From NCBI GenBank assembly GCA_027063785.1, contig JAMORC010000005.1, forward strand, positions 90,050-154,049: 64,000 nt of DNA. The letters run 5' to 3'. A program made the translations under genes and the position numbers. Position 1 is the stretch's first letter. Each line of letters opens with the position of its first letter. Below are positions 19,499-46,339 of this stretch, in pieces. The notes beneath the pieces were generated by a model. That model was given only the letters and a program-made list of their open reading frames with translations, was not told the DNA's origin and did not search any database. Source of the stretch: Desulfurobacteriaceae bacterium. Lineage in GTDB: Bacteria; Aquificota; Aquificia; Desulfurobacteriales; Desulfurobacteriaceae.

Positions 19499-22400
19499 TT
19501 ATACAGCTACCTCTTTCTCTTTCTCCTTTTCGAGCCTCTCTTTCAGGAAGTAATCGATAGTTTCCACTCTGATTTTGATGGAACCGGAGGGGCGGTTTTC
19601 ATCTATTTCGTGGAATGTAAAGTGAGGAGTTCCGCTCTTTTCCGCTATCTCCTCTATTAAGGAGTAAATGGGAGCATCGTGGCCGCACCGGAAGGAGGAG
19701 AGGTCTAAAAGGGCGATGTTCGGATGTCTCGAACCGTAAAGGGCTGCCCAGACCTTTCTGTTTGTGTTTTCGCTGTATGCCTTTTTCCAGATGTCCCTTA
19801 TGGAAAACGGATCGCGGTCTGGGAAGAGTTTCTTGAGCGTTTCGTCGTCTACCGGGAGGGAGTCGATGGTTAGTATGGGGTAGCCTTTTTTCTGAAGCTC
19901 CTCGGTTATTCCGTGATTTATTCCCGGATCGTTGTGGTACGGTCGACCGAGGGCGAGGATTACAAATCTTCCTTCTGCTTCCGCCTTTTTGAGTACTTTC
20001 CTGCCGATATTTCTCATTTTTTCAATGTAGGCTTCTAAAGCCCTGAATCCCTCCTTGACGGCCTTTCTGTTTTCATCCCTTTTTAGGGATAGAAGTTCCT
20101 TAAAAGCTTCAAATAGCTCCCACTCCAATATCTCTTCATCGTCAAAGTGGAGTATGGGGTCAATCAGCTCTATTCCGAACTTTTTAAAAACGTCCTCTTC
20201 CTTTGTTAGGACTGCCTTTACCGATATGGGGGTTCCGGTAACCGTTGGGCAAGCGTGGGATCCCTCTGCATCCCGGAACATTCCTTTAAGCGTTGCTATT
20301 TTTGGAAACAGGATAAAGTCCGGTTTTTTCTTTATCAGGTCCCTTACGTGAGCTAAGGCCACCTTGCTGGGGAAGCACGGGTCTATTGCTCCTCCCCTTA
20401 ACTCCTCCCTCACCATCTTTTCTGACGTGTAGTCTGAGAACACGAATCTTTCGACTCCCAGGGACTCCAGGTAACCCCTGAAGAAAGGGGCAAGGGAGTA
20501 AAAGTTCAAAACTCTCGGTATTCCGGCTGTGAGTTTTTTTCTCCTCTCGATGACCTTCTTCCTGCTCAGAATACCGAAGGTTTTTTCTTGATAGACCTTA
20601 TTTACCGGGTAGCTTTCAAATACGGCCTTGGCGGCTATCTCCTGAAGATTGGGGTTTTCTTCCTTTAACCTGTTGAGTTTTTTTACTACCTCTTTTACCT
20701 CCGATGCGTCGGTTACTGTTCCTTTCTCGCAAGGGGCTATGATGTAGAGCCTTTTTCCTTCAGGAAGATTGACGGTTATGAAAGTCCTCTGACACCGGTT
20801 TGTGCAAAACTTGCACCTTGTCGTTTCATCGCTCTTTACTTCGAAGTCCAGTGATAGGAGCTTCTCGATACCTATGAAGTTGGAAGTTTCCCTGTAGTTT
20901 CTCATTGCTTCAACTGCCGCTCCGAAGGCTCCGGCCTCTCCCGTTATGGGGTGAACGAAAACTTCGGCATCGGGTACTCTTTCTTTTATAAAGTCGTATT
21001 GAGCCTTTACTGCTGCAAGGTTCCTCTGAGTTCCTCCTTGTAGCAGGAATCTCCTTCCGAGCCTTTTCAGGTTTGGTTCTTTTACAACGTAGAGCCATAC
21101 GTTTTTGGGAAGGACTTTTGCAAGGCCTGCCATAATCTCGTGAGGTTCCCACCCAAGTCGCTGGAAGTTAACGATATCCTGTTCCAGGAAAACCGCACAG
21201 CCGAAGTTGAACTTAGGAGCAAACTCCGCTTTAAAGGCGACGTCTGCAAACTCCTCGACCCTGTAACCAAACCGCTCAGCTGTTGACTGGAGGAAGTATC
21301 CATTTCCCGCCGAGCACTGAGTGTTGAGCTTGAAATCCTTTACCTCTCCGTTCCTAAGCACCATAACCTTTATGTCTTGTCCCCCGACGTCGACGATTAC
21401 ATCGATCTCTTTAAAGAAGTGCTTTGCCGATATCGTGTGGGCAACGGTTTCAACAACGGCCACATCTGCCCCTATCGTTTCCTTAAGCATTTCTTTTGCA
21501 TAGCCCGTAACCCCTACAGAAAGGATGGAAAGTTTCCCTCCCCTCTTTTCAACCTGATTCTTGAGATCCTCTACGACGCTCTTGGCGTCCTCAAGGGGAT
21601 TTCCCCTTGATAGGGTATAGCTGGTGGCCAGTAATCTTCCTTCAGGACTTATCAGGACAGCTTTTGTGGATGTTGATCCCCCGTCTATTCCGAGAAAGGC
21701 TTTTACTTCTCCGTTAAATTGCGGAGGTTTAAAAGGTTTTACACCGAACTTTTCCTTAAATTTGTCGAGGGATTCCCCTTTCTTCAGAAGTCCGGGCTCT
21801 CCTGTTTTTGCTTTAAGGTAGATTAACGACCTTTCCCTAAACTTCAGAAGCCCTTCTTTTCCTCTATAGGGGCTTTCCTCGTACTTGGAAAAGAGGGCTG
21901 TGCCGAGGGCGGCATAGAGCTGGGAATTCTCTGGAATTAATAGCGAGGAATCATCAAAGACTATTCCTTTCTCTTTCCAGAGTTTTTCAAGGTGATATTT
22001 CCAGGCTTGTTGGAGGGCCGGGAAGAAAGTATTTGGGCCTCCGAGTAAGAGAACTACCGGTCTTAGCGTGTAACCTCTCGTTAGGACTGCGAGGTTCTGA
22101 ACGACAATTGCGTCAAATAGGGAAATTAACAGTTCCTCTGCAGGAACTCCGGCCTTTTGAAGCCCGTTTATGTCGGTTTCTGCAAACACTCCGCACTTGG
22201 CCGCTACAGGGTGAACCTTTTCAGGGTCGTAAGAGACGGTGGTTGCGATATCTAAGGGGAGCTTCAACTTTGAAATTATCCTGTCGATAGTCGCCCCCGT
22301 TCCACCTGCGCACTTATCGTTCATCGTTGTTACTTTTCTCCTAACTCCGCTCCTTTCTATCCAGAAGATCATCTTTGCATCCTGACCCCCAAGCTCTACT

Positions 22401-22687
22401 ACAGAGTTAACTTCCGGATGGAGGCTTTCGACCGCGAGGCTTACTGCATTAACTTCCTGAACAAACTTTACTCCGAGGGCTGAAGCTATATCGCTTCCTC
22501 CACTTCCCGTTAGCAGAAGGTGAAAGTCCTTCCCTGCTATTCTCTCGAATTCCTCAAGGAGTTCTACAACCCGTTCGGACTGTCTTGCTTCATGGCGCTT
22601 ATAGCTCTTAAACAGTATGCGTCCTTTCTCGTCCAGAAGGACTCCCTTTACAGTTGTTGAACCTACATCTATTCCGGCTCTTAGCAT
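19499..22687 (-). CDS. large fusion protein: two BadF/BadG/BcrA/BcrD-type ATPase (CoA-substrate-specific enzyme activase) domains plus a C-terminal 2-hydroxyglutaryl-CoA dehydratase (HgdB/D-component)-like domain
   Basis: GIDVGSTTVKGVLLD and LGIDGGSTSTKAVLIS ATPase N-motifs. Long Cys-containing C-terminal domain. 1062 aa. Confidence 0.7.
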   Translation of the reverse strand: MLRAGIDVGSTTVKGVLLDEKGRILFKSYKRHEARQSERVVELLEEFERIAGKDFHLLLTGSGGSDIASALGVKFVQEVNAVSLAVESLHPEVNSVVELGGQDAKMIFWIERSGVRRKVTTMNDKCAGGTGATIDRIISKLKLPLDIATTVSYDPEKVHPVAAKCGVFAETDINGLQKAGVPAEELLISLFDAIVVQNLAVLTRGYTLRPVVLLLGGPNTFFPALQQAWKYHLEKLWKEKGIVFDDSSLLIPENSQLYAALGTALFSKYEESPYRGKEGLLKFRERSLIYLKAKTGEPGLLKKGESLDKFKEKFGVKPFKPPQFNGEVKAFLGIDGGSTSTKAVLISPEGRLLATSYTLSRGNPLEDAKSVVEDLKNQVEKRGGKLSILSVGVTGYAKEMLKETIGADVAVVETVAHTISAKHFFKEIDVIVDVGGQDIKVMVLRNGEVKDFKLNTQCSAGNGYFLQSTAERFGYRVEEFADVAFKAEFAPKFNFGCAVFLEQDIVNFQRLGWEPHEIMAGLAKVLPKNVWLYVVKEPNLKRLGRRFLLQGGTQRNLAAVKAQYDFIKERVPDAEVFVHPITGEAGAFGAAVEAMRNYRETSNFIGIEKLLSLDFEVKSDETTRCKFCTNRCQRTFITVNLPEGKRLYIIAPCEKGTVTDASEVKEVVKKLNRLKEENPNLQEIAAKAVFESYPVNKVYQEKTFGILSRKKVIERRKKLTAGIPRVLNFYSLAPFFRGYLESLGVERFVFSDYTSEKMVREELRGGAIDPCFPSKVALAHVRDLIKKKPDFILFPKIATLKGMFRDAEGSHACPTVTGTPISVKAVLTKEEDVFKKFGIELIDPILHFDDEEILEWELFEAFKELLSLKRDENRKAVKEGFRALEAYIEKMRNIGRKVLKKAEAEGRFVILALGRPYHNDPGINHGITEELQKKGYPILTIDSLPVDDETLKKLFPDRDPFSIRDIWKKAYSENTNRKVWAALYGSRHPNIALLDLSSFRCGHDAPIYSLIEEIAEKSGTPHFTFHEIDENRPSGSIKIRVETIDYFLKERLEKEKEKEVAV

Positions 22688-33540: not shown

Positions 33541-34203
33541 TTGTTTAGGAGGTGGCAAAACTTAGGTGAAATTCTACCCGACTGGCTGGAGTTCTTCATA
33601 GACGGCTTTAACGATAGGCCGGCTCTTTTGCGTGAAGTTGAGGAGTTTGCCAAAAGGGAAAAAGTTCCCATTCTTCTCCCCTCTGCCGCCAGCTTTCTGA
33701 GGTTTCTCTCTTCTGTCTTAAGGCCTGAGAAGGTTCTTGAGATCGGGACGGGGATCGGCTACAGCACTTTGAGCATCCTTATGGGGTATCCGCCTGCAAA
33801 GGTTATTACGGTGGACTCCAACAGGAAAAGGGCTGAGGTTGCCGATAGTTTCTTTAGGAAGGGCGGTTTTGAAGTCGATCTCATCGTTTCGGACGGTCTT
33901 GACCTGATGAGGAGCTTGATCTGCAGGGAGGAGGAGTTTGACTTAGTCTTTGTGGATGCCGTTAAGTCTGAGTACCCGTTTTACAACTTTAAGGTTCAGT
34001 CTCTCCTTTCCGAAAGGGGCGTTGCCGTATTTGATAACGTTCTTTTCAGGGGTTATGTTGCCGGCAGGCCTTTTAATTCGCGTTACACGAGGACTGTTAG
34101 GTTGCTCAAACTTTTCCTGGAGAGCGTGAAGGAATACCCCGGTTTCTCCTCTACCATTCTTCCTGTTGGAGACGGGCTTTTGCTTCTATACCGTTTAGTA
34201 TAA
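33541..34203 (+). CDS. class I SAM-dependent O-methyltransferase (family 3, YrrM/TrmR-like)
   Basis: SAM-binding motif VLEIGTGIGYSTL. Likely TTG start 33541 just after the palindromic CCTCCGGAGG. Confidence 0.6.
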   Translation: MFRRWQNLGEILPDWLEFFIDGFNDRPALLREVEEFAKREKVPILLPSAASFLRFLSSVLRPEKVLEIGTGIGYSTLSILMGYPPAKVITVDSNRKRAEVADSFFRKGGFEVDLIVSDGLDLMRSLICREEEFDLVFVDAVKSEYPFYNFKVQSLLSERGVAVFDNVLFRGYVAGRPFNSRYTRTVRLLKLFLESVKEYPGFSSTILPVGDGLLLLYRLV

Positions 34204-34209
34204 TTTCCG

Positions 34210-34366
34210 TTGGGTTCCGAGTCTGGCCGCCTAAGGGGCAATGCCCTATGGGGCCAGACCGATAGGGTGTGTCTGGAAACGGGCACGCCTCCCGGACTTG
34301 GAAAGGAACCCGCCTTTAGGGGTCAGTTCCGGTCCGGGGCTGACCCCTAAAGCATTTTAGGGGAGG
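34210..34366 (+). promoter_or_regulatory. structured 5' leader RNA upstream of modA: candidate cofactor (Moco/Wco-type) riboswitch or other cis-regulatory element
   Basis: GC-rich 160-nt noncoding stretch with nested stems: GTCTGGCC 34221-28 with GGCCAGAC 34252-59, enclosing GGGCA-a-TGCCC; CCAGAC 34254-59 can alternatively pair with GTCTGG 34271-76. A 3' hairpin AGGGGTCAG/CTGACCCCT 34319-48 has a 3' arm that can instead pair with the RBS region AGGGG 34359-63. Confidence 0.4.
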
Positions 34367-34372
34367 TGTATT

Positions 34373-35113
34373 GTGAGGATTTTGCTGTTTCTCTTATTTT
34401 TCCAATTTTTCTTTTGTGTTTCTTCTTTAGCTGACGTTATTAGACTAAGTGCTGCTATGGGAACGAAAGATTTTATTAGTTATGAGGTTAAACAGTTTAA
34501 CGCCTCTCGTAGTTCTGATAAAGTGGTTTGTAACTTTTCTTCTTCGGGTAAATTGGCTATGCAGATAGAGGCGGGAGCGCCTGCTGATGTTTACGTCTCT
34601 GCTTCTAAATTCTGGATGAATTATCTGATAGAGAAAGGATTTATTGTTCCTGATTCTGCTAAACCTTTTGCTTCTACGGACTTGGTTTTGGTTGTTCCGT
34701 TAAATTCACATATTAGTTCAATTATGGAGGCTAAAAAAATTGCAGTAGGTAATAGATTGGCACCTGTCGGTAAGTATGCGATAGAGACGCTTGAGAATTT
34801 GGGTGTTTATGAAAAGTTAAAGAATAGGTTTATCTATGCGCCTACTGTAAGGCAGATTAGCGTTTGGGTTATGACAGGAAATGCAGATGCTGGTATTATC
34901 TATTACTCCGACTACGTGAAATTTAAGGATAAGTTAAAGTTGTTGAAAGTTTTTCCTGAGAGTCTTCACAGACCTATTACTTTCTGGATAGGTGTTGTTA
35001 AGGGAACGAAAAATTCCCCCTCTGCTAAAGCCTTTGAGCAATTTATCCTTAACACGGACAACAGCGTCTTCAAAAAGTTTGGCTTTAAGAAAGTAACTGA
35101 GGGTCTAAAATGA
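34373..35113 (+). CDS. modA: molybdate/tungstate ABC transporter periplasmic substrate-binding protein
   Basis: Signal peptide, ModA-like fold length (246 aa). GTG start after GGGAGG. Followed by modB. Confidence 0.8.
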
Positions 35114-35790
35114 TTTCTCTTGACCCGGAAGCTCTCTTTTCCATAAAACTCTCTTTAAAAGTTTCAACCATTTCTGTGCTTTTAGTTACACTGCTTGGAC
35201 TTCCTGTTGCTTACTTTTTAGCGTTAAAGAAGTTTCCGTTTAAGAACCTGTTAGACGCTTTGATAACTCTACCTTTAGTTTTTCCCCCTACCGTTACCGG
35301 TTATCTTCTGCTTTTACTTTTGGGCAAAAACGGGGTTATCGGTTCTTTGATTTATAAGCTTTTCAAAACAGGAATAGTATTTACCTGGTATGCTGCTGTT
35401 GTTGCTTCTTCCGTTGCTGCTTTCCCGATTTTCGTTAAAGGGGCAAGAGCTGCAATGGAATCGGTTGACAGAAACCTTATATACGTTTCTTATACTTTGG
35501 GCAAAGGTGAGCTGAAGACCTTTTTTAAGGTTGTTTTACCCCTTGCTAAAAGAGGAATAATTGCGGCAGTTGTCCTCTCTTTTGCAAGGGCGATGGGTGA
35601 GTTCGGCGCCACTCTTATGCTTGCAGGCAATATTCCTTTTCAAACGAATACGATACCGATAGAGATTTACAGTGCAGTGTCGGGTGGAGATTTTGAAAAA
35701 GCCAATCTATTGTCTGCAGTTACGGCTGTGATTTCTCTAACTATTCTTTACCTGATAAACCGATTAACTAACAGAGGTGAGAAATGGTAG
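35110..35790 (+). CDS. modB: molybdate ABC transporter permease
   Basis: CysTW-type permease with the EAA-like loop [19 protein letters not shown] overlap with modA. Confidence 0.85.
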
Positions 35791-36629
35791 TGTTTTCTGA
35801 AGAAGAAATAGATGCCCTTTTAAAGGAAGACGTTCCTTATTTTGATCTGACTACCTATCTGCTTGGAATAGGGAATGAAAGAGGAAAAATGGAGTTTTCT
35901 GCCAGACACGACATTGTTGTGTGCGGGACAGAGGAGTGTTGTAGGTTATTTAAAAAAGCAGGACTGGAGATTAAAAAGTGTCTTCCAAGTGGTAGTGAGG
36001 TAAGCGCTGATGAAGTGTTTTTGGAAGTTGAAGGTTTGGCTGAAGGTTTGCATTTAACCTGGAAGGTTGCTCAGAACGTTCTTGAATACGCTTCGGGGAT
36101 TGCTACAAGAACAAAAAGGTTAGTAGACCTTGCAAAAGAAGTTAACGAGAACGTTGAAGTTGTTACTACTAGGAAGACCTTTCCCTTTGCTAAAAAGCTA
36201 TGCATAAAGGCGATACTTGCTGGAGGAGCTTTGCCCCATAGATTGGGACTTTCTGAAAGCGTTCTCGTTTTTGAGAACCATACGAAGTTCCTTGGTGGTT
36301 TGGATAAGTTGTTAGAGATAATACCCGAGTTGAAGAAGCGCGTTCCTGAAAAAAAGATAGTTGTTGAAGTTAACTTTATTGAGGATGCTTTTCTGGCTTT
36401 AAGTTCAGGAGTTGAAGTGGTTCAGTTGGATAAATTTTCTATTGAGGATGTTGTTGAAGTGGTGAATTTTAGAAATCAGAAGTTTCCTAACGCTAAAGTT
36501 GCTGCTGCAGGTGGTATAAACGAAACCAATATAAAGAGTTACGCTGCTACCGGTGTTGACATAATTGTTCTAACGTGCGCTTACTTTGGAAAACCTGCCG
36601 ATGTTAAGGTAAGGATGGATAAGTGTTAG
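35784..36629 (+). CDS. modD: ModD protein (quinolinate/nicotinate-nucleotide pyrophosphorylase-fold, molybdenum-transport associated)
   Basis: N-terminal [19 protein letters not shown]. QPRTase type II-like TIM barrel length (281 aa). Sits between modB and modC. Confidence 0.7.
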
Positions 36630-37684
36630 AGGTTTTTGTAAAGAAAGAACTTAAAGGATTTTCTTTGGATGTTTGCTTTGTTTCTGAAGCTAAAGCTGTT
36701 TCTCTTTTTGCTCCTTCGGGATCGGGAAAGAGCCTTACACTTCAAGCGATAGCTGGTTTGCTGAAGCCTGATAAGGGGAAGATAAAAGTTCTCGATAGGG
36801 TGTTTTTTGATTCAAGTAGAGGAATTTTCTTACCTCCGCAGCAGAGAAGAGTGGGTTATCTGTTCCAGGATTATGCTCTGTTTCCACATATGACGGTTTG
36901 GGAAAACGTTTTTTATGGTTGTAAAGATAAACAGCGAGTAGAAGAAGTTTTAAGAATGCTTGAAATTCAGGATATAAAAGATCGATTTCCGAAAGAAATT
37001 TCTGGGGGGCAGAAACAGAGAGTTGCTCTTGCAAGAGCTTTAGCTTTTGAACCTAAGGTTTTGCTTTTAGATGAACCTTTCTCCGCTCTTCATAAAAGTT
37101 TGAAGATGGATTTGTATGAAAGACTTGGAGAAGTTGTAAATAAGTTTCGCATTCCTATGGTTTTGGTAACTCATGATTTTGATGAAGTCCTTAAACTTAC
37201 TGATTATGTTGTAATTATGGAAAAGGGAAGAGTAAGACAAACAGGAAATCCGGAAAAGGTATTTTTAAATCCGATAGATGAGAAGATAGCTAAATTATTG
37301 GGGCATCGAACTTTCCTTCCAGGTAAGGTTGTTTCCGTAAGAGAAAGATGGGCGAAGGTGAAGTTAAGAAAAGGGCAACTTTTGGTAGCTAAAAACTTTC
37401 CAGAGGATTTAAGGGAAGGTGAGGATGTGATCATTTCTGTTTTACCGTTTGCTGTTGCATTTAATCCTTCAGAAGACTTTGTGAGAGTTTCTGCAACGGT
37501 TAAGGATATCTTTAAGGAGAAAGATAAAATTGTGGTGATTTTAGACTTAGGAAATGATGTAATTTTACATTTTCCGTTTTCTCTCTCTCCAAACTACATC
37601 CTAGAAAGAGGAAGGGAAGTGGATTTTTATCTTTCTCCTTCCTGTATTTCTGTTTTTAGGAGGAGGTATGAAGAGGAAGGTTAA
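36623..37684 (+). CDS. modC: molybdate ABC transporter ATP-binding protein with C-terminal MOP/TOBE domain
   Basis: Walker A APSGSGKS. Signature [16 protein letters not shown]-terminal beta-rich TOBE-like ~120 aa. Confidence 0.85.
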
Positions 37685-38690
37685 GGTTGAAAATGCTGTA
37701 GGAATGGTTCTTGTTCATGATGTTACAGAGGTTGACCTGGGGAGGAATTATAAGGGAAGGGCGTTTAAGAAGGGGCATGTAATAAGGCCTGAGGATGTTG
37801 AGAAGTTAAAAAGGCTCGGTAAGGACTACGTTTACGTCCTTGAGCTTTCTCCGGATGAGATCCACGAGGATGAAGCGGCTGTTCTCTTGGCGGAAGCCAT
37901 TATGGGGGAAAACACTTATAGGGATGAGGAGCCGAGAGAGGGGAAGATTAATATTTACTCTTCCGTTTTCGGAGTTGTAAAGGTTGATGTTGAAAAGCTC
38001 TTTCGATTTAACATGGTAGGGGAGCCTTCATGTCCGACTATTCATTCTGATATGTACGTAAAACCCGGTGAGAAGATTGCTGCTGTTCGGATTATTTCCC
38101 TTGTTGCTCCGAGGAAGGAGGTAAAAGAAGCTGTAAGGATTGCCGGTGACGGCATTGTCAGGGTTGTTCCCTTTGAGGAAAAAAGGGCTGGAATAATCAT
38201 TACGGGTAATGAGGTGTACTACGGGAGAATTGAAGATAAGTTCTATGAACGCCTGAAGCCAAAGCTTGAGTTTTTCAAGTGCCGAGTTGAGGAAAAAGTT
38301 GTTCTCCCCGATGATAAGGAGAGGATAAAACAGAAAATTCTCGAGTTTGCAAACCGGTACGATATTGTGGTTCTTACCGGCGGAACATCTGTTGATCCCG
38401 ATGACGTTACTTACAAGGCGGTTAGGGAAGCCGGGGTTAAGAACTTCATTAGGGGCAATCCCATTCAGCCCGGTAACATGCTGAGTATGGGCTGGCTCGG
38501 TAAAGTCCCCGTTGTTGCCGTCCCGGCCGCTGCTCTCTTCTTTAAAGCAACCTCTTTTGATATCTGGCTTCCGAGGCTTCTTATAGGGGATGTTATTACG
38601 AAGGAAGAAGTTGCCAGAAAGTCCCACGGGGGTCTCTGCCACGGCTGTTCCGTTTGTGTATTTCCAGTTTGTCCCTTTGGGAGGCCGTAA
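37668..38690 (+). CDS. MoeA-N-like + MogA/MoaB-like molybdopterin-binding (MoCF biosynthesis) domain protein with a C-terminal Cys cluster
   Basis: [10 protein letters not shown] resembles the MoeA N-terminal region. [15 protein letters not shown] is MoCF-biosynthesis-domain-like. C-terminal [15 protein letters not shown]. Stop overlaps the moeA ATG (TAATG). Confidence 0.55.
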
Positions 38691-39889
38691 TGAAAGTGAC
38701 CAGGGAGGAAGCTCTTAACGTAATTCTTTCTTCGGTTGATCCGGTAAAGGTTGAAGAGTCGGTAACTCTGGAAAAAGCTTACGGTAGAATCCTTGCTGTT
38801 GATATCTTTTCCCCCGTTGACCTGCCCGATGGAGACAAATCGGCAGTTGACGGCTTTGCCTTTAAGTCCTCCTCTGCTCCCGGCAGGTTTAAGGTAATCG
38901 GGGAATCGCCTGCTGGGAGGCCGGATAGGCTTGCAGTTTCGAATGGAGAAGCCGTTTTTGTAATGACCGGAGGTTTAATACCTGAAGGTGCAGACGCTGT
39001 TGTTAGGATTGAAGACGTTAGTTTTGATGGGAATTACGTTACTGTTGATTTCCCCGTTCGGGAAGGGAACCTTATAAACTATGCAGGCAGCGAGATTAAG
39101 GAGGGAGAGAGGGTTCTTAAAAAAGGGGACCTTCTCGATTTTCGGAAAGTTGGGTTGCTTGCCAACCTTGGAATATACAGGGTAAAAGTTTTCAGGAAGC
39201 CGAGAGTAGGTGTTTTAGTAACCGGGGATGAAGTTCTTGAACCCTTTGAACCCTATTTCCTAGGTAGTGTTAGGAACTCTAACTACTATATCCTAAAAGG
39301 TATTCTGGAAAGAATCGGGGTTTCTGTTATTTACCTCGGTAAGTCTTTCGATTCTGTCGATGAGATGGCTTCGGTTTTCGGTGAAGCACTTGAAGGAGTC
39401 GATGTTCTCGTTACTACCGGGGGCGTTTCAAAGGGAAAGTACGACTTTGTTAAAGAAGTTGTTGAAAGGGTCGGGTTTGACGTTAGGTTCACTACAACGA
39501 ACATAAGGCCGGGCAGACCTTTGGTCTTCGGCGTAAAGGGCAGTAATCTGTTCTTTGGCCTTCCCGGCTATCCGGCGGCGATGCTTGTCAATGCTTTAGA
39601 ATTTCTCGTTCCTGCCCTCCGAAAGCTTTCAGGGAGGAAGGAATTTTTTAACCGATACCTTCCCGCGGTTGCCCTTGAAGATCTAAAGTCGAGGGAAGGC
39701 AGGGTTGATTTCGTAAGGGTTAACCTTGAAGTTTTCGACGGAAGACTCGGAGTTGTCAACGCCGGAAGCCAGCAAACCTCTAACTTCCTCTCCATGGCAA
39801 TGTGTGACGGTTTGGCCGTTATAGGAGCTGACAGAGGAACGGTTAGGAAAGGAGAGTTTGTTGACCTGCTGCTTTTTGACAGGATATAG
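38690..39889 (+). CDS. moeA: molybdopterin molybdotransferase
   Basis: ATG 38690 after GGGAGG ([13 protein letters not shown]...). Motifs SAVDGFAF, VMTGGLIPEGADAV, VLVTTGGVSKGKYDFV. Confidence 0.85.
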   Translation: MKVTREEALNVILSSVDPVKVEESVTLEKAYGRILAVDIFSPVDLPDGDKSAVDGFAFKSSSAPGRFKVIGESPAGRPDRLAVSNGEAVFVMTGGLIPEGADAVVRIEDVSFDGNYVTVDFPVREGNLINYAGSEIKEGERVLKKGDLLDFRKVGLLANLGIYRVKVFRKPRVGVLVTGDEVLEPFEPYFLGSVRNSNYYILKGILERIGVSVIYLGKSFDSVDEMASVFGEALEGVDVLVTTGGVSKGKYDFVKEVVERVGFDVRFTTTNIRPGRPLVFGVKGSNLFFGLPGYPAAMLVNALEFLVPALRKLSGRKEFFNRYLPAVALEDLKSREGRVDFVRVNLEVFDGRLGVVNAGSQQTSNFLSMAMCDGLAVIGADRGTVRKGEFVDLLLFDRI

Positions 39890-40040: not shown

Positions 40041-41306
40041 GTGGGGATAGATAAGAAGGCTCTGATGCTGGGAATGGGGATAGGACTCCTGGTAGCCGAT
40101 CCCGCCTTTTCTTCCGCCTCTATTCCTGCCTTCGAAGGGGAACTGAAGACGCAGGTTGAATTCAGAGAAGACATAAGGGATAGAGATTCCACTCCCTTTG
40201 ATACTTACCTGAAGTTGGATGTCAGGGATTTAAAAGGTAAGTCGGAACTTCACTTTTACGGAAAGCTCTGGAAGGATCTCGGAAGGGGAACTGATTGGGA
40301 TGCCGATCTCTTTCAACTCTACGTGGATACTCCGCTTAACAGAGAGTTTAAGCTATCTGTCGGTAGACAGTTCATATCCGAAGGCTTTGAAACTTACATT
40401 GCTGATGCTGTGAGACTAACTCGATCTTCGAAAAAGGGACTTCGCTACGTTTTCTATTTGGGTAAGCCGAGGTACTTTGAGCCGAACACGCGGAGCGGAG
40501 ATGACCTTTTAGCCGGTTTTAAGTTGGATTACAAAGGTTTCTTCTTGGGTTTTGAACATGTTAGGAAAAACGGAGATGTGAGGAAAAGTTCCTTCCTTTT
40601 CGGCGATTACAGGTATCTTACCAGGGAGCTTGCTCAGTATGCGAGACTTGAACTTGACGTTGCCCACGGAGAACTTCTTAGCTGGAACTTGGGAATTGAT
40701 TACTTCCCTACCAAGAAGTTAAGGCTTAACTCTGATCTGGAGTTTTACGACGGCAGTTATACCTATGGAGACGGAGTAAGGGAGAACGAGCTTTTCTATC
40801 TGTTCTCGAGCGGCAGGGAACTGCGATTTACTCAAAGCGTTTACTACGATTTAACGAAAGTCTGGCAGGTTTTTGGAAGCTACACGTTTACAGACCTTCA
40901 GAGGAAAGGTAAGGATAACGGTCATCTAATAAAGCTCGGACTTGTAAGGGATACTTGGTTTGATAACGGGCTGAGGAGCTACGGTTCTCTTCTTTATCAG
41001 AACAGTTGGTTTGGAATAATGAAGGGTTTTGAGGTCGGGTTTACGAAATACTTCTGCAGAAAACTCACCCTTACGGGAATGCTTGATGTTGCCCACTACG
41101 ACAAGATTACTTACGGAAGCCAGTGGTCGAATGCCCTTTACTTGAAAGGAACTTACGCAGTTACTGAGTTCTCGAACTTTGAGCTTGGAATCGACTACAG
41201 GAAGAATGAGGATTTTGATAGGGATGCCAGGGTAATACTCAGGTATAACTACCTCTTCTGGGGTGGAAGTTCATACAAAGAAAGGAGAGTCGAGGAAAGG
41301 AAATGA
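40041..41306 (+). CDS. secreted outer-membrane beta-barrel protein (porin-like), first gene of the multiheme cytochrome operon
   Basis: GTG start. Signal peptide MGIDKKALMLGMGIGLLVADPAFSSA. Alternating amphipathic beta-strand pattern, many Y/F/W. ~421 aa, no Cys motifs. Confidence 0.55.
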   Translation: MGIDKKALMLGMGIGLLVADPAFSSASIPAFEGELKTQVEFREDIRDRDSTPFDTYLKLDVRDLKGKSELHFYGKLWKDLGRGTDWDADLFQLYVDTPLNREFKLSVGRQFISEGFETYIADAVRLTRSSKKGLRYVFYLGKPRYFEPNTRSGDDLLAGFKLDYKGFFLGFEHVRKNGDVRKSSFLFGDYRYLTRELAQYARLELDVAHGELLSWNLGIDYFPTKKLRLNSDLEFYDGSYTYGDGVRENELFYLFSSGRELRFTQSVYYDLTKVWQVFGSYTFTDLQRKGKDNGHLIKLGLVRDTWFDNGLRSYGSLLYQNSWFGIMKGFEVGFTKYFCRKLTLTGMLDVAHYDKITYGSQWSNALYLKGTYAVTEFSNFELGIDYRKNEDFDRDARVILRYNYLFWGGSSYKERRVEERK

Positions 41307-41905
41307 GAGGAATTGCTGTTCTTTTGTTCTGTATAGCGGCCTTTTCCCTATTCTCCTGTGGTAAGGGAAATGTGAAGTATAAGGAGGAACTCGGCGCTAC
41401 GGCAAAGTTCCACCACAGGGATCATAAGGAATTTATCGATAGTCACGGCTGCATTCCGTGCCACAAAATGAACGTTGAAATGAGCTGGGCTGATATAGAG
41501 GCTGCAGAGAGGGGTTCAAAGAAAGTAATTATGCCTTCAAAAGTAACCTGCCATTACTGCCACAATAATCCGGGTAAGACGCCGGCTCCTAACGCTCCAA
41601 CAAAGTGTTACATATGTCACTTTAACATGAAAGAAATAGAGCCGGCCGACCATAAGACCGGGAACTGGCTGAAAACTCACAGGTTTGCCTATGAAGGGGA
41701 TCCCGAAAGGTGTGATGAGTGCCACAGACAGCGCTTCTGCATCGATTGCCATGCCAAGCGGGATGTTATCCAGCATTTCGTTCATCCGAGGAACTACGAT
41801 TATACCCACAGCATAGAGGCTGCTGCGGATCCTGCCAAGTGCGGCAGGTGTCACCGACCGGGTTTCTGTATGGAATGTCATACAAAGGGGATGTGGACGA
41901 GATGA
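41303..41905 (+). CDS. heptaheme c-type cytochrome lipoprotein (doubled-CxxCH type)
   Basis: ATGA overlap with the previous gene. Lipobox LFSC. 7 CxxCH (CIPCH, CHYCH, CYICH, CDECH, CIDCH, CGRCH, CMECH) in 200 aa. Confidence 0.8.
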   Translation: MRGIAVLLFCIAAFSLFSCGKGNVKYKEELGATAKFHHRDHKEFIDSHGCIPCHKMNVEMSWADIEAAERGSKKVIMPSKVTCHYCHNNPGKTPAPNAPTKCYICHFNMKEIEPADHKTGNWLKTHRFAYEGDPERCDECHRQRFCIDCHAKRDVIQHFVHPRNYDYTHSIEAAADPAKCGRCHRPGFCMECHTKGMWTR

Positions 41906-42774
41906 GAAAGGGAATGGCTTTACTTTTGTTCTTGGTTACCGGTTTGACGGTTAACTCTTACGGAAAAGAGTGCGGTGGAGTTGGCTATACCGGCAAGGAG
42001 GACGGCTTCTGCCTAAAATGTCACTCTTCCGGCTGCCCGATTGTTCACCCTCTTTCCTGTAAAGTTGAAGAGACCGATTGTATAAAGCTTCCTTCCCGAT
42101 TTCCCTTGAAAGACGGCAGGATGGCCTGTACCACATGTCATGATATGGCTTCAAAAAACCGCTATTTTCTGAGATCCAGAAAACCTATTAAAAAGAGGTT
42201 TGACTTCTGCTTCCAGTGCCACAATCCGGAATGCTATAGGAAGTTTAACCCTCACGAAGCGATAGGAAAAGATTTACCGTGGCAGGAGAAGAAGAAGGCC
42301 TGTATTTACTGTCACGGTGTCGGGGCAAGACTTGAGGCTTACAAGGCCTGTGTGGGGTGCCATACGGAAACTCCTCACGTCGGCGCTCCCGAGCATATGC
42401 TGGCTTCGGAAGATAAGGTTAAGAAGCTTACTGAGGGTAAGAAGGGAGTCTTTGAGATAAGTTCAATGAAAGAGCTGAAACCGAAGATTTCCCTGGAAGA
42501 GTTAAAAGGAAGGAAAGCGAAAGTGATACTCGTTAAAGGCAGGATAGAGTGTATAACCTGTCACAATCCTCATCCCCAGATAGCCTATGAAGCCGAAGCA
42601 CTTTCCGGAGATTGGGCAAAAGTGGTGTTGGGAGATATCGAGTATAAGCTTAAAAAGCTGGAACTTTCTCTTAACAGGTTTTCGGTTAATAAAGAAGCTG
42701 TCAAGCTTATGAGCCGGCCTGTGGAAGCCGGAAAACTGTGTACCGTTTGTCACTCTATTAATTCGTTGAAGTAG
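41902..42774 (+). CDS. heptaheme periplasmic c-type cytochrome
   Basis: ATG 41902 overlapping the previous stop (ATGA). Signal peptide MRKGMALLLFLVTGLTVNSYG. 7 CxxCH (CLKCH, CTTCH, CFQCH, CIYCH, CVGCH, CITCH, CTVCH). Confidence 0.8.
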   Translation: MRKGMALLLFLVTGLTVNSYGKECGGVGYTGKEDGFCLKCHSSGCPIVHPLSCKVEETDCIKLPSRFPLKDGRMACTTCHDMASKNRYFLRSRKPIKKRFDFCFQCHNPECYRKFNPHEAIGKDLPWQEKKKACIYCHGVGARLEAYKACVGCHTETPHVGAPEHMLASEDKVKKLTEGKKGVFEISSMKELKPKISLEELKGRKAKVILVKGRIECITCHNPHPQIAYEAEALSGDWAKVVLGDIEYKLKKLELSLNRFSVNKEAVKLMSRPVEAGKLCTVCHSINSLK

Positions 42775-42784
42775 GGGGTAGAGA

Positions 42785-43879
42785 GTGAAAGCCTTTATAG
42801 TTGGACTGACGGGAGCTTTCCTTCTGGCGGGAACTGCTCTTGGCGGCGGGATATCCGACGACGGGTGCTTGGTCTGTCATAGGCTTAAGGGACTTTCGGT
42901 CGTTGATGAGGATAATAGAGTAAGGGACTGTAGTATTAACGATGCCCTTTACGCTCACTCAATTCACAGAAATGTCGGTTGTACTGAGTGTCATGACAGA
43001 ATAGAACAGTATCCCCATAAACCTGAGAATGTGGCGGCAAACTGTGCAAATAAGTGTCACGTCGCTGATCCTTCGACGAAAAAGCCCTTTTCTCACGGGG
43101 AAGTTTTTAAAACGTGGAAGGAAAGCGTTCACGGTAAGAATTATGAGAAGGCTCCAGATATCTATCCTTACTGTAGCTACTGTCATACGAACGACCTCCT
43201 CATAGACGTTAAGAAATTTGAAGCCCTAGAGGGGAGCTTTGGCCGTTGTTCGATCTGCCATCAGAACAGAGAGTGGGCAGAAGACAGGCTGGCTCACGTT
43301 GCTTCAAGAGAACCTCTTCCGATTATAAAGAACGGTTTTGTCCACCAATTTATCAAGACAAGGAGGGACGGCTGGGAGATTGTTGAATTGTGTGCATCCT
43401 GTCATGAGGATGAAGAGAAGATGGAGAAAGCTATTGAGATAGAGGGTATTCACAATAAGTACGAAAAGGAAAGGATACTTACGGCCGTTGAGTCCTATAA
43501 GGTGACTATGCACTCAAAGATGCTGTACCTTGATAGGAATGATACGAGGGCTGCTGATTGTTTGGATTGTCATACCAACAAGGGAGGGAATTTCCACGAT
43601 ATATTCCATAAGAGTGATCCGAGATCTTCCGTTAACGTGAAGAACATAGAGTTGACCTGTGGCAGATCAACTGAATGTCATCCCCTTGCTCCTGCCAAGG
43701 ATATGAAGAATTTCGCCACTACTAAGTGGGTTCATATGCATCCGGTTCCGGATACTCTCGGTCAGAAGATAGTGAAAATTGTTGAGGAGTTTATGTTCTG
43801 GCTTACTACGGGAACGCTACTTTTTGCCGTTACAATTGTTGGACTTGACCTACTTAAAAACTTGAGGAGGAAGCACTAA
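42785..43879 (+). CDS. multiheme c-type cytochrome with C-terminal transmembrane anchor (partner of the downstream cytochrome b)
   Basis: GTG start after GGGGGT. Signal peptide. Six canonical CxxCH (CLVCH, CTECH, CSYCH, CSICH, CASCH, CLDCH) plus CANKCH (Cx3CH) and CGRSTECH. C-terminal helix FMFWLTTGTLLFAVTIVGLDLL. Confidence 0.8.
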   Translation: MKAFIVGLTGAFLLAGTALGGGISDDGCLVCHRLKGLSVVDEDNRVRDCSINDALYAHSIHRNVGCTECHDRIEQYPHKPENVAANCANKCHVADPSTKKPFSHGEVFKTWKESVHGKNYEKAPDIYPYCSYCHTNDLLIDVKKFEALEGSFGRCSICHQNREWAEDRLAHVASREPLPIIKNGFVHQFIKTRRDGWEIVELCASCHEDEEKMEKAIEIEGIHNKYEKERILTAVESYKVTMHSKMLYLDRNDTRAADCLDCHTNKGGNFHDIFHKSDPRSSVNVKNIELTCGRSTECHPLAPAKDMKNFATTKWVHMHPVPDTLGQKIVKIVEEFMFWLTTGTLLFAVTIVGLDLLKNLRRKH

Positions 43880-44811
43880 TGGGACTCTGGGAGGCATTTA
43901 AAGAGAGGTTTAGGATAAGGCCGGACCAGGATAAACTCCTTATCGTCGATGGAGAGAGAATTCTTATACAGAAATTTACTCTGTTCCAAAGGCTTCTTCA
44001 CGTTGGAATATTTTCCACCTTTATCTGGCAGATAATCACCGGATATCCCCTAAAGTTCTACAACACGGAGTGGGCTAAGCCGTTGATTGCTCTTCTCGGC
44101 GGAATTACCGGAGAAATGACCATTCACAGAATATCGGGATTTATAATGTTCGCCGACTTCCTCCTTACTGTTCTGTATATGATCCTTATACTTATAGCTA
44201 ACTGGGATCTTGCTAAAAAGGACTTTTTCGGGTATTTCAGAATCGTTCCCGGGCCTTCCGACGTAACTTTTGTTCATTATGTAAAGTACCTGCTCGGTTT
44301 CAGAAAAGTGCCTCCGGATTGGGACGAGTACATCTGGGTTGACAAGTTTGATTTCTGGGCGGTTGGTTGGGGTATGCTGGCCATTGGTATTACGGGATGG
44401 ATGCTTTGGCTTCCCGAAGTTTTTACCGGCTTTCTCCACCTTCCGCCGGAGACGATACAGATTGCTTACTTAATGCACTCGGATGAGGCTGTACTGGCGC
44501 TGGGTTGGATTGCCCTTGTTCACATGTACGTTGTTCACTACGGTCCCAATAAATTCCCTATGGACTGGATTTGGCTTACCGGAACGGCTTCAGAGGTTGA
44601 GTGGATAGAAGAGCGCCCCAGGAGTTACAGGAGGATTATCAAGGCTGTTGCTGAGAATGAACCCCATCTCCTCGAGAAGTACCCGTTCCTCAAGGAGCGT
44701 TATCAATTTGTCCTGGAGGTGGAAAAGCTTCCTGAGGAGGAGATGATAGAGAAGATGCACGAGTATGCCCATTACCTTCTTGAGAAGGAAGTGGAAGGGA
44801 GGAATGGATAA
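43879..44811 (+). CDS. integral-membrane b-type cytochrome (Ni/Fe-hydrogenase/formate dehydrogenase gamma / PhsC-like di-heme cytochrome b family), putative quinol-oxidising subunit
   Basis: TAATG overlap with the previous gene. 4-5 TM helices with conserved His (LLHVGIFSTF, IHRISGF, LVHMYVVHYG). Confidence 0.65.
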   Translation: MGLWEAFKERFRIRPDQDKLLIVDGERILIQKFTLFQRLLHVGIFSTFIWQIITGYPLKFYNTEWAKPLIALLGGITGEMTIHRISGFIMFADFLLTVLYMILILIANWDLAKKDFFGYFRIVPGPSDVTFVHYVKYLLGFRKVPPDWDEYIWVDKFDFWAVGWGMLAIGITGWMLWLPEVFTGFLHLPPETIQIAYLMHSDEAVLALGWIALVHMYVVHYGPNKFPMDWIWLTGTASEVEWIEERPRSYRRIIKAVAENEPHLLEKYPFLKERYQFVLEVEKLPEEEMIEKMHEYAHYLLEKEVEGRNG

Positions 44812-45524
44812 TGAAGAGGTTGATCCTTGCTCTTTTCGTTCTGCCGATAGCCGTTCAGGGAGCTGAGAACCCGCTTCTCTCCGCTCCTGCCAAGGACATT
44901 TCTAAATGGGAGAATAAACTGAAGGAGTTTGAAAGACCGGAGCTGCCCAGGAAGGAAGGTTATCCGAGGCCGTTTCACTTGCCTAACGGCTATAAGTACT
45001 CCCTTGATGATGTCTGTTTGGCCTGTCACACCTTTGCTGCCCATAAGAAGGATAAGAAGTACGCTCCTTTTTACAACGCCCACGGAACCTTCTTGAGCTG
45101 CACAACGTGCCATTTTGTTAAATCCGGTCTCTCGTACAGCTGGGTTGAAATCGATGGTGATAGAGCCGTTGGAAAGGAAGGAGGAGATTTTTACGGTCTT
45201 CGTTATATAAGGAACGGTAATAGGGTTATCCTTTCCGGAGGAGATAGCAGAGCAAGGATAACTCCTGTTTATGATGGAGCTCCTCTTGTTATCCCTCTTA
45301 AAGGTAATGAGTCTCTTCTGAAAGACGTTAAGGCCGTTTCAAAGATGCACTCTGCTCTTACTGAGAAGGTTTTGAAGTGTGAGGATTGCCACAGGGAGAA
45401 AGGTGTTCTTGACTTTCGCGCTTTAGGTTTTAGTGATGAAAGGGTAAAGGATCTTGAGGAAAACGAGGTAGTGAAAGGATTAAAAGAGTATAAGACGATT
45501 CACTTCCCCAAATTTATCTGGTAA
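44811..45524 (+). CDS. triheme periplasmic c-type cytochrome
   Basis: TAATG overlap. Signal peptide MKRLILALFVLPIAVQGA. CLACH, CTTCH, CEDCH. Confidence 0.75.
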   Translation: MKRLILALFVLPIAVQGAENPLLSAPAKDISKWENKLKEFERPELPRKEGYPRPFHLPNGYKYSLDDVCLACHTFAAHKKDKKYAPFYNAHGTFLSCTTCHFVKSGLSYSWVEIDGDRAVGKEGGDFYGLRYIRNGNRVILSGGDSRARITPVYDGAPLVIPLKGNESLLKDVKAVSKMHSALTEKVLKCEDCHREKGVLDFRALGFSDERVKDLEENEVVKGLKEYKTIHFPKFIW

Positions 45525-45535
45525 GGGGTCAGAGA

Positions 45536-46339
45536 ATGAGGTTTATAGTTGCTGCTTTGCTTGCGATCCTGTTTTCCGTAAGAGCTGTAGCGGGAGAGGT
45601 TATAAAAGGTGACTGGAAGTTTCCTTCGGATATTGCAGTTAGTAACGGCAAACTTTACGTTGTTGACGGGCTGAACAACAGGATTGCCGTTTACGACTTG
45701 TACGGGGAGCACCTTATTGACCTTAAGGTTGATTCTCCTTACGGGATATTCGTTGATAACGGATTGGTATATGCCGTCAGTCAGAAGGGAAGACTTTACG
45801 TCCTTGATGAGTACGGGGAGCTTCTGAAGAGCTTCCCGCTGAAAGGACGGCCTATTGATGTTGTTAAGTTAAAAGACAGACTTTTCGTTAGCAACGGTGA
45901 AGGAAATACGGTGGATGTCTATACCCTTGACGGAAAGCTTGTTAAGAGGATCGGCGGAAAGGGGACTGTTCCTGGTAACTTTGTCGGTGTATTTCTGATG
46001 GACAGGGGGAAAAATCTTATTTATGTTGTTGATTCTGTTAACGCCAGGATTCAGGAGTTTGATGAGGACGGCAGGTTTGTCAGATCATTCGGGGTTTTCG
46101 GTATAGAGGAAGGGGATCTCTTCAGGCCTAAAGGGATTGCAGTCTGTAATGGTTACGTTGCTGTAAGTGACGGTATTACCGGAGCTGTTCAGCTTTTTGA
46201 TCCTTACGGCGGATTTGAGAACGTGATTGCTGAAGGTCTTTACTACCCTACAGCCCTTAGCTGCTATGACGGAGAGGTTTTTGTCCTTGAACCTCTGAAG
46301 AACAGAGTTTCTACATTTAGACTTCGGGGAGTCAAGTAA
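45536..46339 (+). CDS. secreted NHL-repeat beta-propeller protein
   Basis: Signal peptide MRFIVAALLAILFSVRAVAG. Repeated Y(V/A)VD..N.RI..(F/Y)D..G blades (LYVVDGLNNRIAVYDLYGE, YVVDSVNARIQEFDEDGRF, etc.). Confidence 0.75.
   Translation: MRFIVAALLAILFSVRAVAGEVIKGDWKFPSDIAVSNGKLYVVDGLNNRIAVYDLYGEHLIDLKVDSPYGIFVDNGLVYAVSQKGRLYVLDEYGELLKSFPLKGRPIDVVKLKDRLFVSNGEGNTVDVYTLDGKLVKRIGGKGTVPGNFVGVFLMDRGKNLIYVVDSVNARIQEFDEDGRFVRSFGVFGIEEGDLFRPKGIAVCNGYVAVSDGITGAVQLFDPYGGFENVIAEGLYYPTALSCYDGEVFVLEPLKNRVSTFRLRGVK

Follow-up and report, generated by a model that had tools for sequence, protein, structure and literature searches.

A P3-lacking Moco/Tuco (RF01055) riboswitch with a covarying alternative helix in the modA leader of a Desulfurobacteriaceae bacterium

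The RNA element described here is of a known kind: its family has been described since 2007-2008, is curated in Rfam and is experimentally supported. Moco RNAs followed by intrinsic terminators have been reported together with a class that lacks the P3 hairpin (Regulski 2008, PMC2408646). Representatives without P3 correlate with tungsten-cofactor metabolism, and Tuco sensing was proposed for them (Regulski 2008, PMC2408646), with an exception in Pelobacter carbinolicus, where a P3-less RNA stands before a predicted molybdate transporter (PMC2408646). In E. limosum, P3-less RF01055 elements are regarded as Tuco riboswitches, of which some use a terminator as platform, and the genes behind a P3-less RF01055 element with a terminator hairpin rise when W is limiting (PMC11725836). 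Lechner et al. (2014, PMC4227106) also list a MOCO riboswitch for Thermovibrio ammonificans. The instance analysed here, in the leader of modA, is a typical member of the family, of the sort that routine annotation identifies as RF01055. It lies in a window of 64,000 nucleotides, by which we mean the whole stretch of DNA under study.

The RF01055 aptamer upstream of modA

The region before modA had been predicted, from the letters of the DNA alone, to be a GC-rich noncoding stretch of about 160 nt holding a candidate riboswitch for the molybdenum or tungsten cofactor. The intergenic gap (34204-34372) measures 169 nt and has a GC content of 59.8%, compared with 46.3% for the whole window. Searching the 64 kb against Rfam 15 returned RF01055, the Moco/Tuco riboswitch aptamer and the very model named as a check in the original prediction, as the sole gathering-level match, at 34203-34324 on the forward strand. 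It scores 75.8 bits, with a gathering score of 36 (E = 1.6e-16), and its alignment runs untruncated over model positions 1-135 of 135, the positions of the P3 hairpin being deleted. Energetically, the leader folds with an MFE of -91.8 kcal/mol, compared with -68.1 +/- 4.3 kcal/mol in dinucleotide shuffles (z = -5.5, with 0 of 200 shuffles as good), and the unconstrained MFE fold is the Rfam consensus fold. We therefore regard it as close to certain that the modA leader is an ordinary RF01055 member of the P3-lacking structural type.

The aptamer, as delimited by the Rfam match, the MFE fold and covariation in 22 homologs, extends from the 5' strand of P1 to its 3' strand (34211-34312, forward strand) and ends 61 nt upstream of modA, on the same strand. 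P1 pairs UGGGUUCC (34211-34218) with GGAACCCG (34305-34312), both in the model alignment and in the MFE. P2 (34221-34259), assigned from the model alignment and covariation, consists of GUCUGGCC/GGCCAGAC with a tetraloop receptor and a distal GGGGC/GCCCU hairpin. Its outer strands in the DNA, GTCTGGCC (34221-28) and GGCCAGAC (34252-59), flank the inner hairpin GGGGC/GCCCT, and correspond to the helix around a small hairpin that had been noticed before any search. The 11-nt tetraloop receptor inside P2 is recognised from its sequence, CCUAAG at 34230-35 and UAUGG at 34247-51. In place of P3 there is only the 5-nt junction J2/4, CGAUA (34260-34264), with the P3 model positions deleted, and this short J2/4, where P3 would be expected, places the RNA in the P3-lacking class. 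P4 (34265-34290; model alignment, covariation) has 11 bp and carries a GAAA tetraloop at 34276-34279; this GNRA-type loop and the receptor in the P2 bulge are both present, and they are predicted to dock. P5 (CC/GG with the loop CGGACUU; 34291-301) and J5/1 (AAA) together occupy 34291-34304 in the model alignment, and the conserved aptamer core around P5 reads CCUCCC...UGGAAAGG. The junction nucleotides UCCGAG, AGGG, CCUCCC and UGGAAAGG are all present, and they are invariant in 22 leaders.

Immediately before P1, at 34199-34204 on the forward strand, lies a probable -10 element, TATAAT. A TATAAT-like hexamer is common to the homologous leaders: in all 19 inspected it lies 6-8 nt before the first G of P1, often with a preceding TG. 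From this conserved position just before P1 it follows that the transcript would begin at the foot of P1, probably at about 34210-34212, some 7 nt past TATAAT. A consensus promoter scan did not call the leader promoter, missing TATAAT at 34199-34204 because there is no good -35 element at 16-18 nt. The -10 box overlaps the stop codon TAA (34201-34203) of the upstream O-methyltransferase gene, whose C-terminal coding sequence (GGAGACGG..., 34162-34203) is kept upstream of the leader in several relatives, so that synteny reaches upstream of the RNA as well.

The regulated operon and the homologous leaders

The operon behind the leader (34373-39889, forward strand) contains modA, modB, modD, modC, a gene for a 340-aa protein with a MoCF_biosynth domain, and moeA, as assigned from open reading frames, NCBIfam and Pfam; the modABC and moeA context on which the original prediction leaned is thus real. 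Its reading frames overlap or abut, and the gene order is identical in D. pacificum. NCBIfam models match modA (TIGR01256, 167.6 bits), modB (TIGR02141, 235.7) and modD (TIGR01334, 257.7), while those for modC (TIGR02142) and MoeA (NF007960) are the best matches of their proteins, yet below the curated cutoffs. Taken together, the content of the operon is Mo/W uptake and metal insertion into the cofactor. Translation of modA starts at a GTG codon (34373-34375) behind the ribosome-binding site AGGGGAGGTG (= AGGGGAGGUG; 34359-34368), the two spanning 34359-34375 on the forward strand, as read from the sequence and the open reading frames.

Two members of the operon deserve a comment of their own. 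The modD product, quinolinate-phosphoribosyltransferase-like, is encoded at 35784-36629 (forward strand) between modB and modC, and the reading frames overlap at their stop and start codons. The 340-aa protein (37668-38690, forward strand), located between modC and moeA, matches MoCF_biosynth (molybdopterin-binding) only in its central region, has a cysteine-rich C-terminus and is kept at the same position in D. pacificum.

Directly 3' of the mod/moe operon is a cluster of multihaem c-type cytochrome genes (40041-49011, forward strand). It encodes an 890-aa protein with Paired_CXXCH, cytochrome c7/c3 and MtrC/MtrF-like domains, with two smaller CXXCH proteins beside it, a cytochrome b561-type membrane protein, an NHL beta-propeller protein, and a 421-aa protein that has no Pfam match and could be an outer-membrane component. 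The cluster looks like an extracellular or periplasmic electron-transfer module. Two of its haem-motif reading frames, 41303-41905 and 41719-42774 (forward strand), overlap by about 190 nt in different frames, and the second one probably starts at an internal codon further downstream. Elsewhere in the window, on the reverse strand, 19499-22687 encodes a large activase-like protein of 1062 aa in which a BadF/BcrA-type ATPase is fused with a DUF2229 'CoA enzyme activase' domain.

The window ModA is 85% identical to the protein of Desulfurobacterium pacificum and more distantly related to those of Thermovibrio and other Desulfurobacteriaceae; the locus itself also occurs in identical copies on three metagenome-derived contigs. 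Accordingly, the host belongs to the Aquificota and is Desulfurobacterium-like. Scanning genome contigs with a single ModA protein found no relatives, and the related loci were gathered using an alignment of 29 ModA homologs as the query, D. pacificum being added separately. The alignment scan yielded 15 Desulfurobacteriaceae genome loci and 11 metagenome loci. RF01055 precedes modA, with or without an intervening porin gene, in 13 of the 15 genome loci (36-84 bits), and the loci from Thermovibrio MAGs carry the orthologous leader upstream of modA.

For the comparative analysis we built a covariance model of the aptamer and the downstream hairpin, and used it for realignment. A MAFFT alignment had misplaced three sequences in which the P5 loop is 1 nt shorter, and the covariance-model alignment was used in its stead. 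The search cut-off was set at E <= 1e-15, as the palindromic hairpin otherwise draws matches on the reverse strand. The model matches 22 distinct leaders, the window and 21 other Desulfurobacteriaceae, with 89-173 bits.

In this 22-leader alignment of orthologous mod leaders, 95.9% of the cells are standard pairs and 23 of the 54 pairs have changed on both sides; none of 500 shuffles reaches the observed pairing and covariation values, and slid controls are 25-56% paired. Both-side changes affect 2 of the 8 pairs of P1 (95% of cells paired), 8 of the 15 of P2 (96-99%) and 4 of the 11 of P4 (99.6%). The 2-bp stem of P5 is invariant across the 22 sequences, and every other stem has compensatory changes. 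P3 is absent from all 22 leaders, J2/4 being 4-5 nt long.

Two further features of the related loci were observed. Four of them (L005, at 1803-2996, L027, L014 and L009) have a Porin_O_P gene between the riboswitch and modA; the product, of about 400 aa, is secreted and belongs to the phosphate-selective porin O/P family, which hints at co-regulation of modA with an anion channel through which molybdate or tungstate would cross the outer membrane. Thermovibrio-like leaders (L006, L008, L010, L013, L007, L030, L031, L011, L012, L015, L028, L034 and L035) have a second conserved hairpin between the terminator and the ribosome-binding site, for example GGAGACCCC...GGGGUCUCC (L006, 1179-1250). Its loop, CACCUCC, is an anti-Shine-Dalgarno sequence complementary to the GGAGGUG ribosome-binding site downstream, and it may add a second, translational control layer to Thermovibrio-like leaders. 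The window leader has no such second hairpin with a CACCUCC loop. A leader peptide in the homologous leaders can be dismissed, since the distance from P1 to the hairpin ranges over 5-26 nt and does not change by multiples of three.

The downstream hairpin and the competing helix

Downstream of the aptamer, the MFE contains a terminator-like hairpin of 18 bp (34314-34352, forward strand) that is conserved in all 22 homologs, 9 of its 18 pairs having changed on both sides. Its core, AGGGGTCAG (34318-26) with CTGACCCCT (34340-48), or AGGGGUCAG/CUGACCCCU as RNA, is the 34319-48 pairing that the original prediction had picked out. The hairpin is followed by GCAUUUUAG, with a U-tract at 34355-34358, and by the ribosome-binding site, which in the window begins 7 nt past the hairpin. 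Tails in the relatives are rich in U (5-8 of 10 nt), as in CCCTTTTCTTTT and CCCCTTTTGTTTTG (CCCUUUUCUUUU and CCCCUUUUGUUUUG); that of the window, UAAAGCAUUUUAG (UAAAGCAUUUU), is the poorest of the family, with 4 U in the first 10 nt. The window hairpin fails a simple terminator rule and is missed by a consensus terminator scan. In the surrounding 20 kb, canonical terminator-like sites show no enrichment over shuffles (32 sites, compared with 27.5 +/- 6.2). Overall, the promoter and terminator consensus scans neither favour nor contradict termination at the leader hairpin. Since the hairpin is conserved family-wide, we infer termination for the window copy too, yet its own U-tail is weak.

The leader had been predicted to form mutually exclusive helices, but neither of the two pairings originally named bears this out, and the competing helix is a different one. 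One of the two pairings was the pairing of CCAGAC (34254-59), the 3' strand of P2, with GTCTGG (34271-76), part of the 5' strand of P4. The complementarity is there, as is every complementary segment named at the time, in place or displaced by no more than 1 nt, but it does not behave as a switching helix: the 22 homologs have no both-side changes in it, and in 9-11 of 21 sequences its two outer pairs cannot form. It is a chance by-product of conserved sequence.

The true competing helix, which had gone unnoticed, is an antiterminator in which the P5 region pairs with the upper part of the hairpin. Its first strand, X (UCCCGGACUUGGAA; 34290-34303, forward strand), comprises the last nucleotide of P4, P5 and J5/1, and the second, Y (UUCCGGUCCGGGG; 34327-34339, forward strand), comprises the hairpin loop and the upper 3' stem. 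The X:Y duplex of the window has 11-13 bp and -20.2 kcal/mol. Among the leaders there are 11 distinct X/Y haplotypes, each of which forms 11-12 bp (-17.7 to -24.2 kcal/mol). Cognate X and Y strands average -21.3 kcal/mol compared with -17.9 kcal/mol for non-cognate ones, a difference matched by 13 of 20,000 permutations. Compensatory switches are found at three adjacent positions (G-C/G-U/A-U, A-U/G-C and C-G/U-G/U-A), namely 34295-97 with 34332-34, in the P5 loop and the hairpin loop, and in L028 one extra A pairs with a U that is bulged in the other leaders. A column-wise count in the hairpin-registered alignment gives merely 2 X:Y pairs changed on both sides, because 9 sequences sit one column off in the hairpin loop; the covariation was accordingly scored by per-sequence duplex folding with a permutation test. 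All of this covariation comes from a single bacterial family and may amount to 2-3 independent events.

The nucleotides of Y that vary are located in the hairpin loop, where the hairpin imposes no constraint. In turn, the invariant flanks of Y, UUCC and GGGG, contain G-U wobbles in the hairpin that become Watson-Crick pairs with the aptamer strand; U327 and U328, for instance, form only G-U wobbles inside the hairpin, and Watson-Crick pairs with A303 and A302. This pattern is as expected for a strand that would be under dual constraint. Thermodynamically, the preferred fold depends on how far transcription has proceeded. For a transcript ending at 34339, the MFE contains X:Y and lacks P1, at -75.4 kcal/mol, compared with -61.0 kcal/mol for the closed aptamer. 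For the full leader, the aptamer with the hairpin reaches -90.1 kcal/mol, compared with -79.5 kcal/mol when the antiterminator is enforced. The ranking of the folds is unchanged at 70 C, and the homologs are bistable in the same sense, with X:Y in the unconstrained nascent MFE of 20 out of 20 and the aptamer plus hairpin in the full-length MFE of 18 out of 20.

A coupled expression platform is therefore present, made of a conserved hairpin that would serve as terminator, a U-containing tail and a covarying antiterminator. Starting from what is observed directly, which is the family membership, the structure, the gene context and the covariation seen in aptamer, hairpin and antiterminator, we put at roughly 0.7 the probability that the leader is a Moco/Tuco riboswitch acting in cis as a kinetic transcription-termination OFF switch for modA-modB-modD-modC-MoCF-moeA. 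Mechanistically, when no ligand is present, the emerging segment 34327-34339 would invade the P5/J5-1 core (34290-34303) to form the antiterminator of 11-13 bp, which would exclude P1/P5 and the downstream hairpin and let transcription enter modA. With the pterin cofactor bound, the aptamer core would be locked and the antiterminator blocked; the 18-bp hairpin (34314-34352) would subsequently form beside the U-containing tail and transcription would stop. As an outcome, cofactor sufficiency would feed back on oxyanion uptake and metal insertion. Cofactor binding, termination and the OFF direction are the steps that we infer, and a termination/antitermination OFF switch built on them is in our view reasonably probable.

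The alternative that survives best is translational control. As originally predicted, the layout would be an aptamer plus a platform sequestering the ribosome-binding site, in which CCCCT pairs with the AGGGG of that site (34359-63). More precisely, the 3' arm of the hairpin, CCCCUAAA (34344-51), would pair with UUUAGGGG (34356-63) and hide the Shine-Dalgarno sequence whenever the hairpin is unformed, so that the ligand state would gate ribosome access instead of, or besides, termination. In the window this pairing is real and perfect, with 8 bp between CCCCTAAA (34344-51) and TTTAGGGG (34356-63) and -11.5 kcal/mol, compared with -5.2 +/- 2.0 kcal/mol in shuffles; the weak U-tail, the ribosome-binding site merely 7 nt past the hairpin and the occurrence of such platforms in the RF01055 family (PMC2408646, PMC11725836) point the same way. 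However, the equivalent segment of the closest relatives has -2.8 to -6.4 kcal/mol, no better than shuffles, and in 12 homologs the ribosome-binding site lies 35-85 nt past the hairpin while hairpin and antiterminator are unchanged. The logic would also be inverted: the ligand-bound fold would free the ribosome-binding site, giving an ON switch, the opposite of the feedback expected for a transporter. In addition, the full-length MFE keeps the 18-bp hairpin and leaves the ribosome-binding site essentially open. The aptamer of the predicted layout thus stands, while the platform conserved in the family is the terminator-like hairpin with the antiterminator of the P5 region. The pairing of the ribosome-binding site with the 3' arm is specific to the window, is rejected as the conserved mechanism, and alone would give an ON switch. 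We consider translational control unlikely as the explanation, and the window-specific hairpin may make a translational contribution.

The covariation between X and Y could alternatively reflect a tertiary contact, a kissing or pseudoknot interaction between the P5 loop and the hairpin loop that would form together with the ligand-bound aptamer and might make up for the absence of P3, with no antiterminator at all. The three covarying positions do sit in these two loops, and covariation alone cannot separate a tertiary contact from an alternative one. The complementarity, however, continues for 11-13 bp through the stem of P5 (C291, C292, G300 and G301) and J5/1, where pairing with both partners at once is impossible. 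The exchange of wobbles for Watson-Crick pairs at U327 and U328 marks Y as a strand under dual constraint, and X:Y is what all 20 nascent homologs form in their unconstrained MFE. A contact of this kind in place of the antiterminator seems to us decidedly improbable. It is likewise quite improbable, in our estimate, that either such a contact makes the 'terminator' hairpin part of the sensor or the loss of P3 does not mean Tuco specificity.

The E. coli modABC operon is controlled by ModE, whose operator of the E. coli type consists of inverted TATAT/TAYAT half-sites in the promoter region. It is scarcely credible that the leader is no riboswitch, the region being instead an operator bound by a protein such as ModE, or no more than a stable, GC-rich 5' UTR or thermostable spacer of a thermophile. 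In favour of this reading, E. coli modABC has ModE as its classical regulator, and the non-coding RNAs of thermophiles commonly form stable GC-rich structures. Against it, the leader matches RF01055 over its full length at twice the gathering score, contains every signature element of the family and has compensatory changes in its stems across 22 leaders (P5 being invariant), while the ModE-type pattern TATAT-N6-8-TAYAT of the E. coli-type consensus has no match in the whole window.

Ligand and comparison with known systems

By the published P3 correlation, the ligand could be Tuco rather than Moco, a reading to which we give about even odds. The binding protein of the operon is of ModA type (TIGR01256, 167.6 bits), the TupA and WtpA models do not match it, and ModB and ModC best match Mo models. 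No genes for molybdo- or tungstoenzymes were found within the window, and the literature searched held no statement on tungsten use in Desulfurobacteriaceae. With a ModA-type protein and no tungstoenzyme gene in the window, equating the lack of P3 with Tuco sensing is locally unsupported.

Beyond its correct annotation, the element has little significance. What the locus adds is a clean, covariation-backed case of an antiterminator built from the P5/J5-1 core of the aptamer, evidence for family-wide regulation of modABC-modD-moeA by RF01055 in Desulfurobacteriaceae, sometimes with an anion porin, and another P3-less RNA before a ModA-type transporter, which bears on the idea that P3-less RNAs sense the tungsten cofactor. 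If a P3-less aptamer indeed guards a ModA-type transporter in a lineage without documented tungsten use, loss of P3 would not be equivalent to Tuco specificity.

Among described systems, the MOCO riboswitch of T. ammonificans (PMC4227106) belongs to the same bacterial family, Desulfurobacteriaceae, and to the same Rfam family as the window element. That report is a bare listing of a hit that may be the modA leader, and the P3-less type, the hairpin and the antiterminator are undescribed there. The E. coli moaA riboswitch (PMC2408646) shares the RNA family, the conserved junction nucleotides and an OFF-type response in which the completed cofactor turns down Mo-cofactor genes. It differs in having P3, in carrying the ribosome-binding site in P1 (translational control), in responding to Moco and not to Tuco, and in controlling moaABCDE and not a transporter.

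The P3-lacking members of Clostridia and delta-proteobacteria (PMC2408646) and those of E. limosum focA and fetABC1 (PMC11725836) share the aptamer parts P1, P2 with its receptor, P4 with GAAA, and P5, and likewise lie 5' of Mo/W-related genes. In some of them, too, a hairpin with a U-tract follows that has been interpreted as an intrinsic terminator, and the complementary regions overlap a conserved aptamer helix. In contrast to these members, the window element controls a ModA-type transporter together with modD and moeA, instead of tupABC or tungstoenzymes, in a thermophilic host of the Aquificota, and its antiterminator strand is the P5/J5-1 core.
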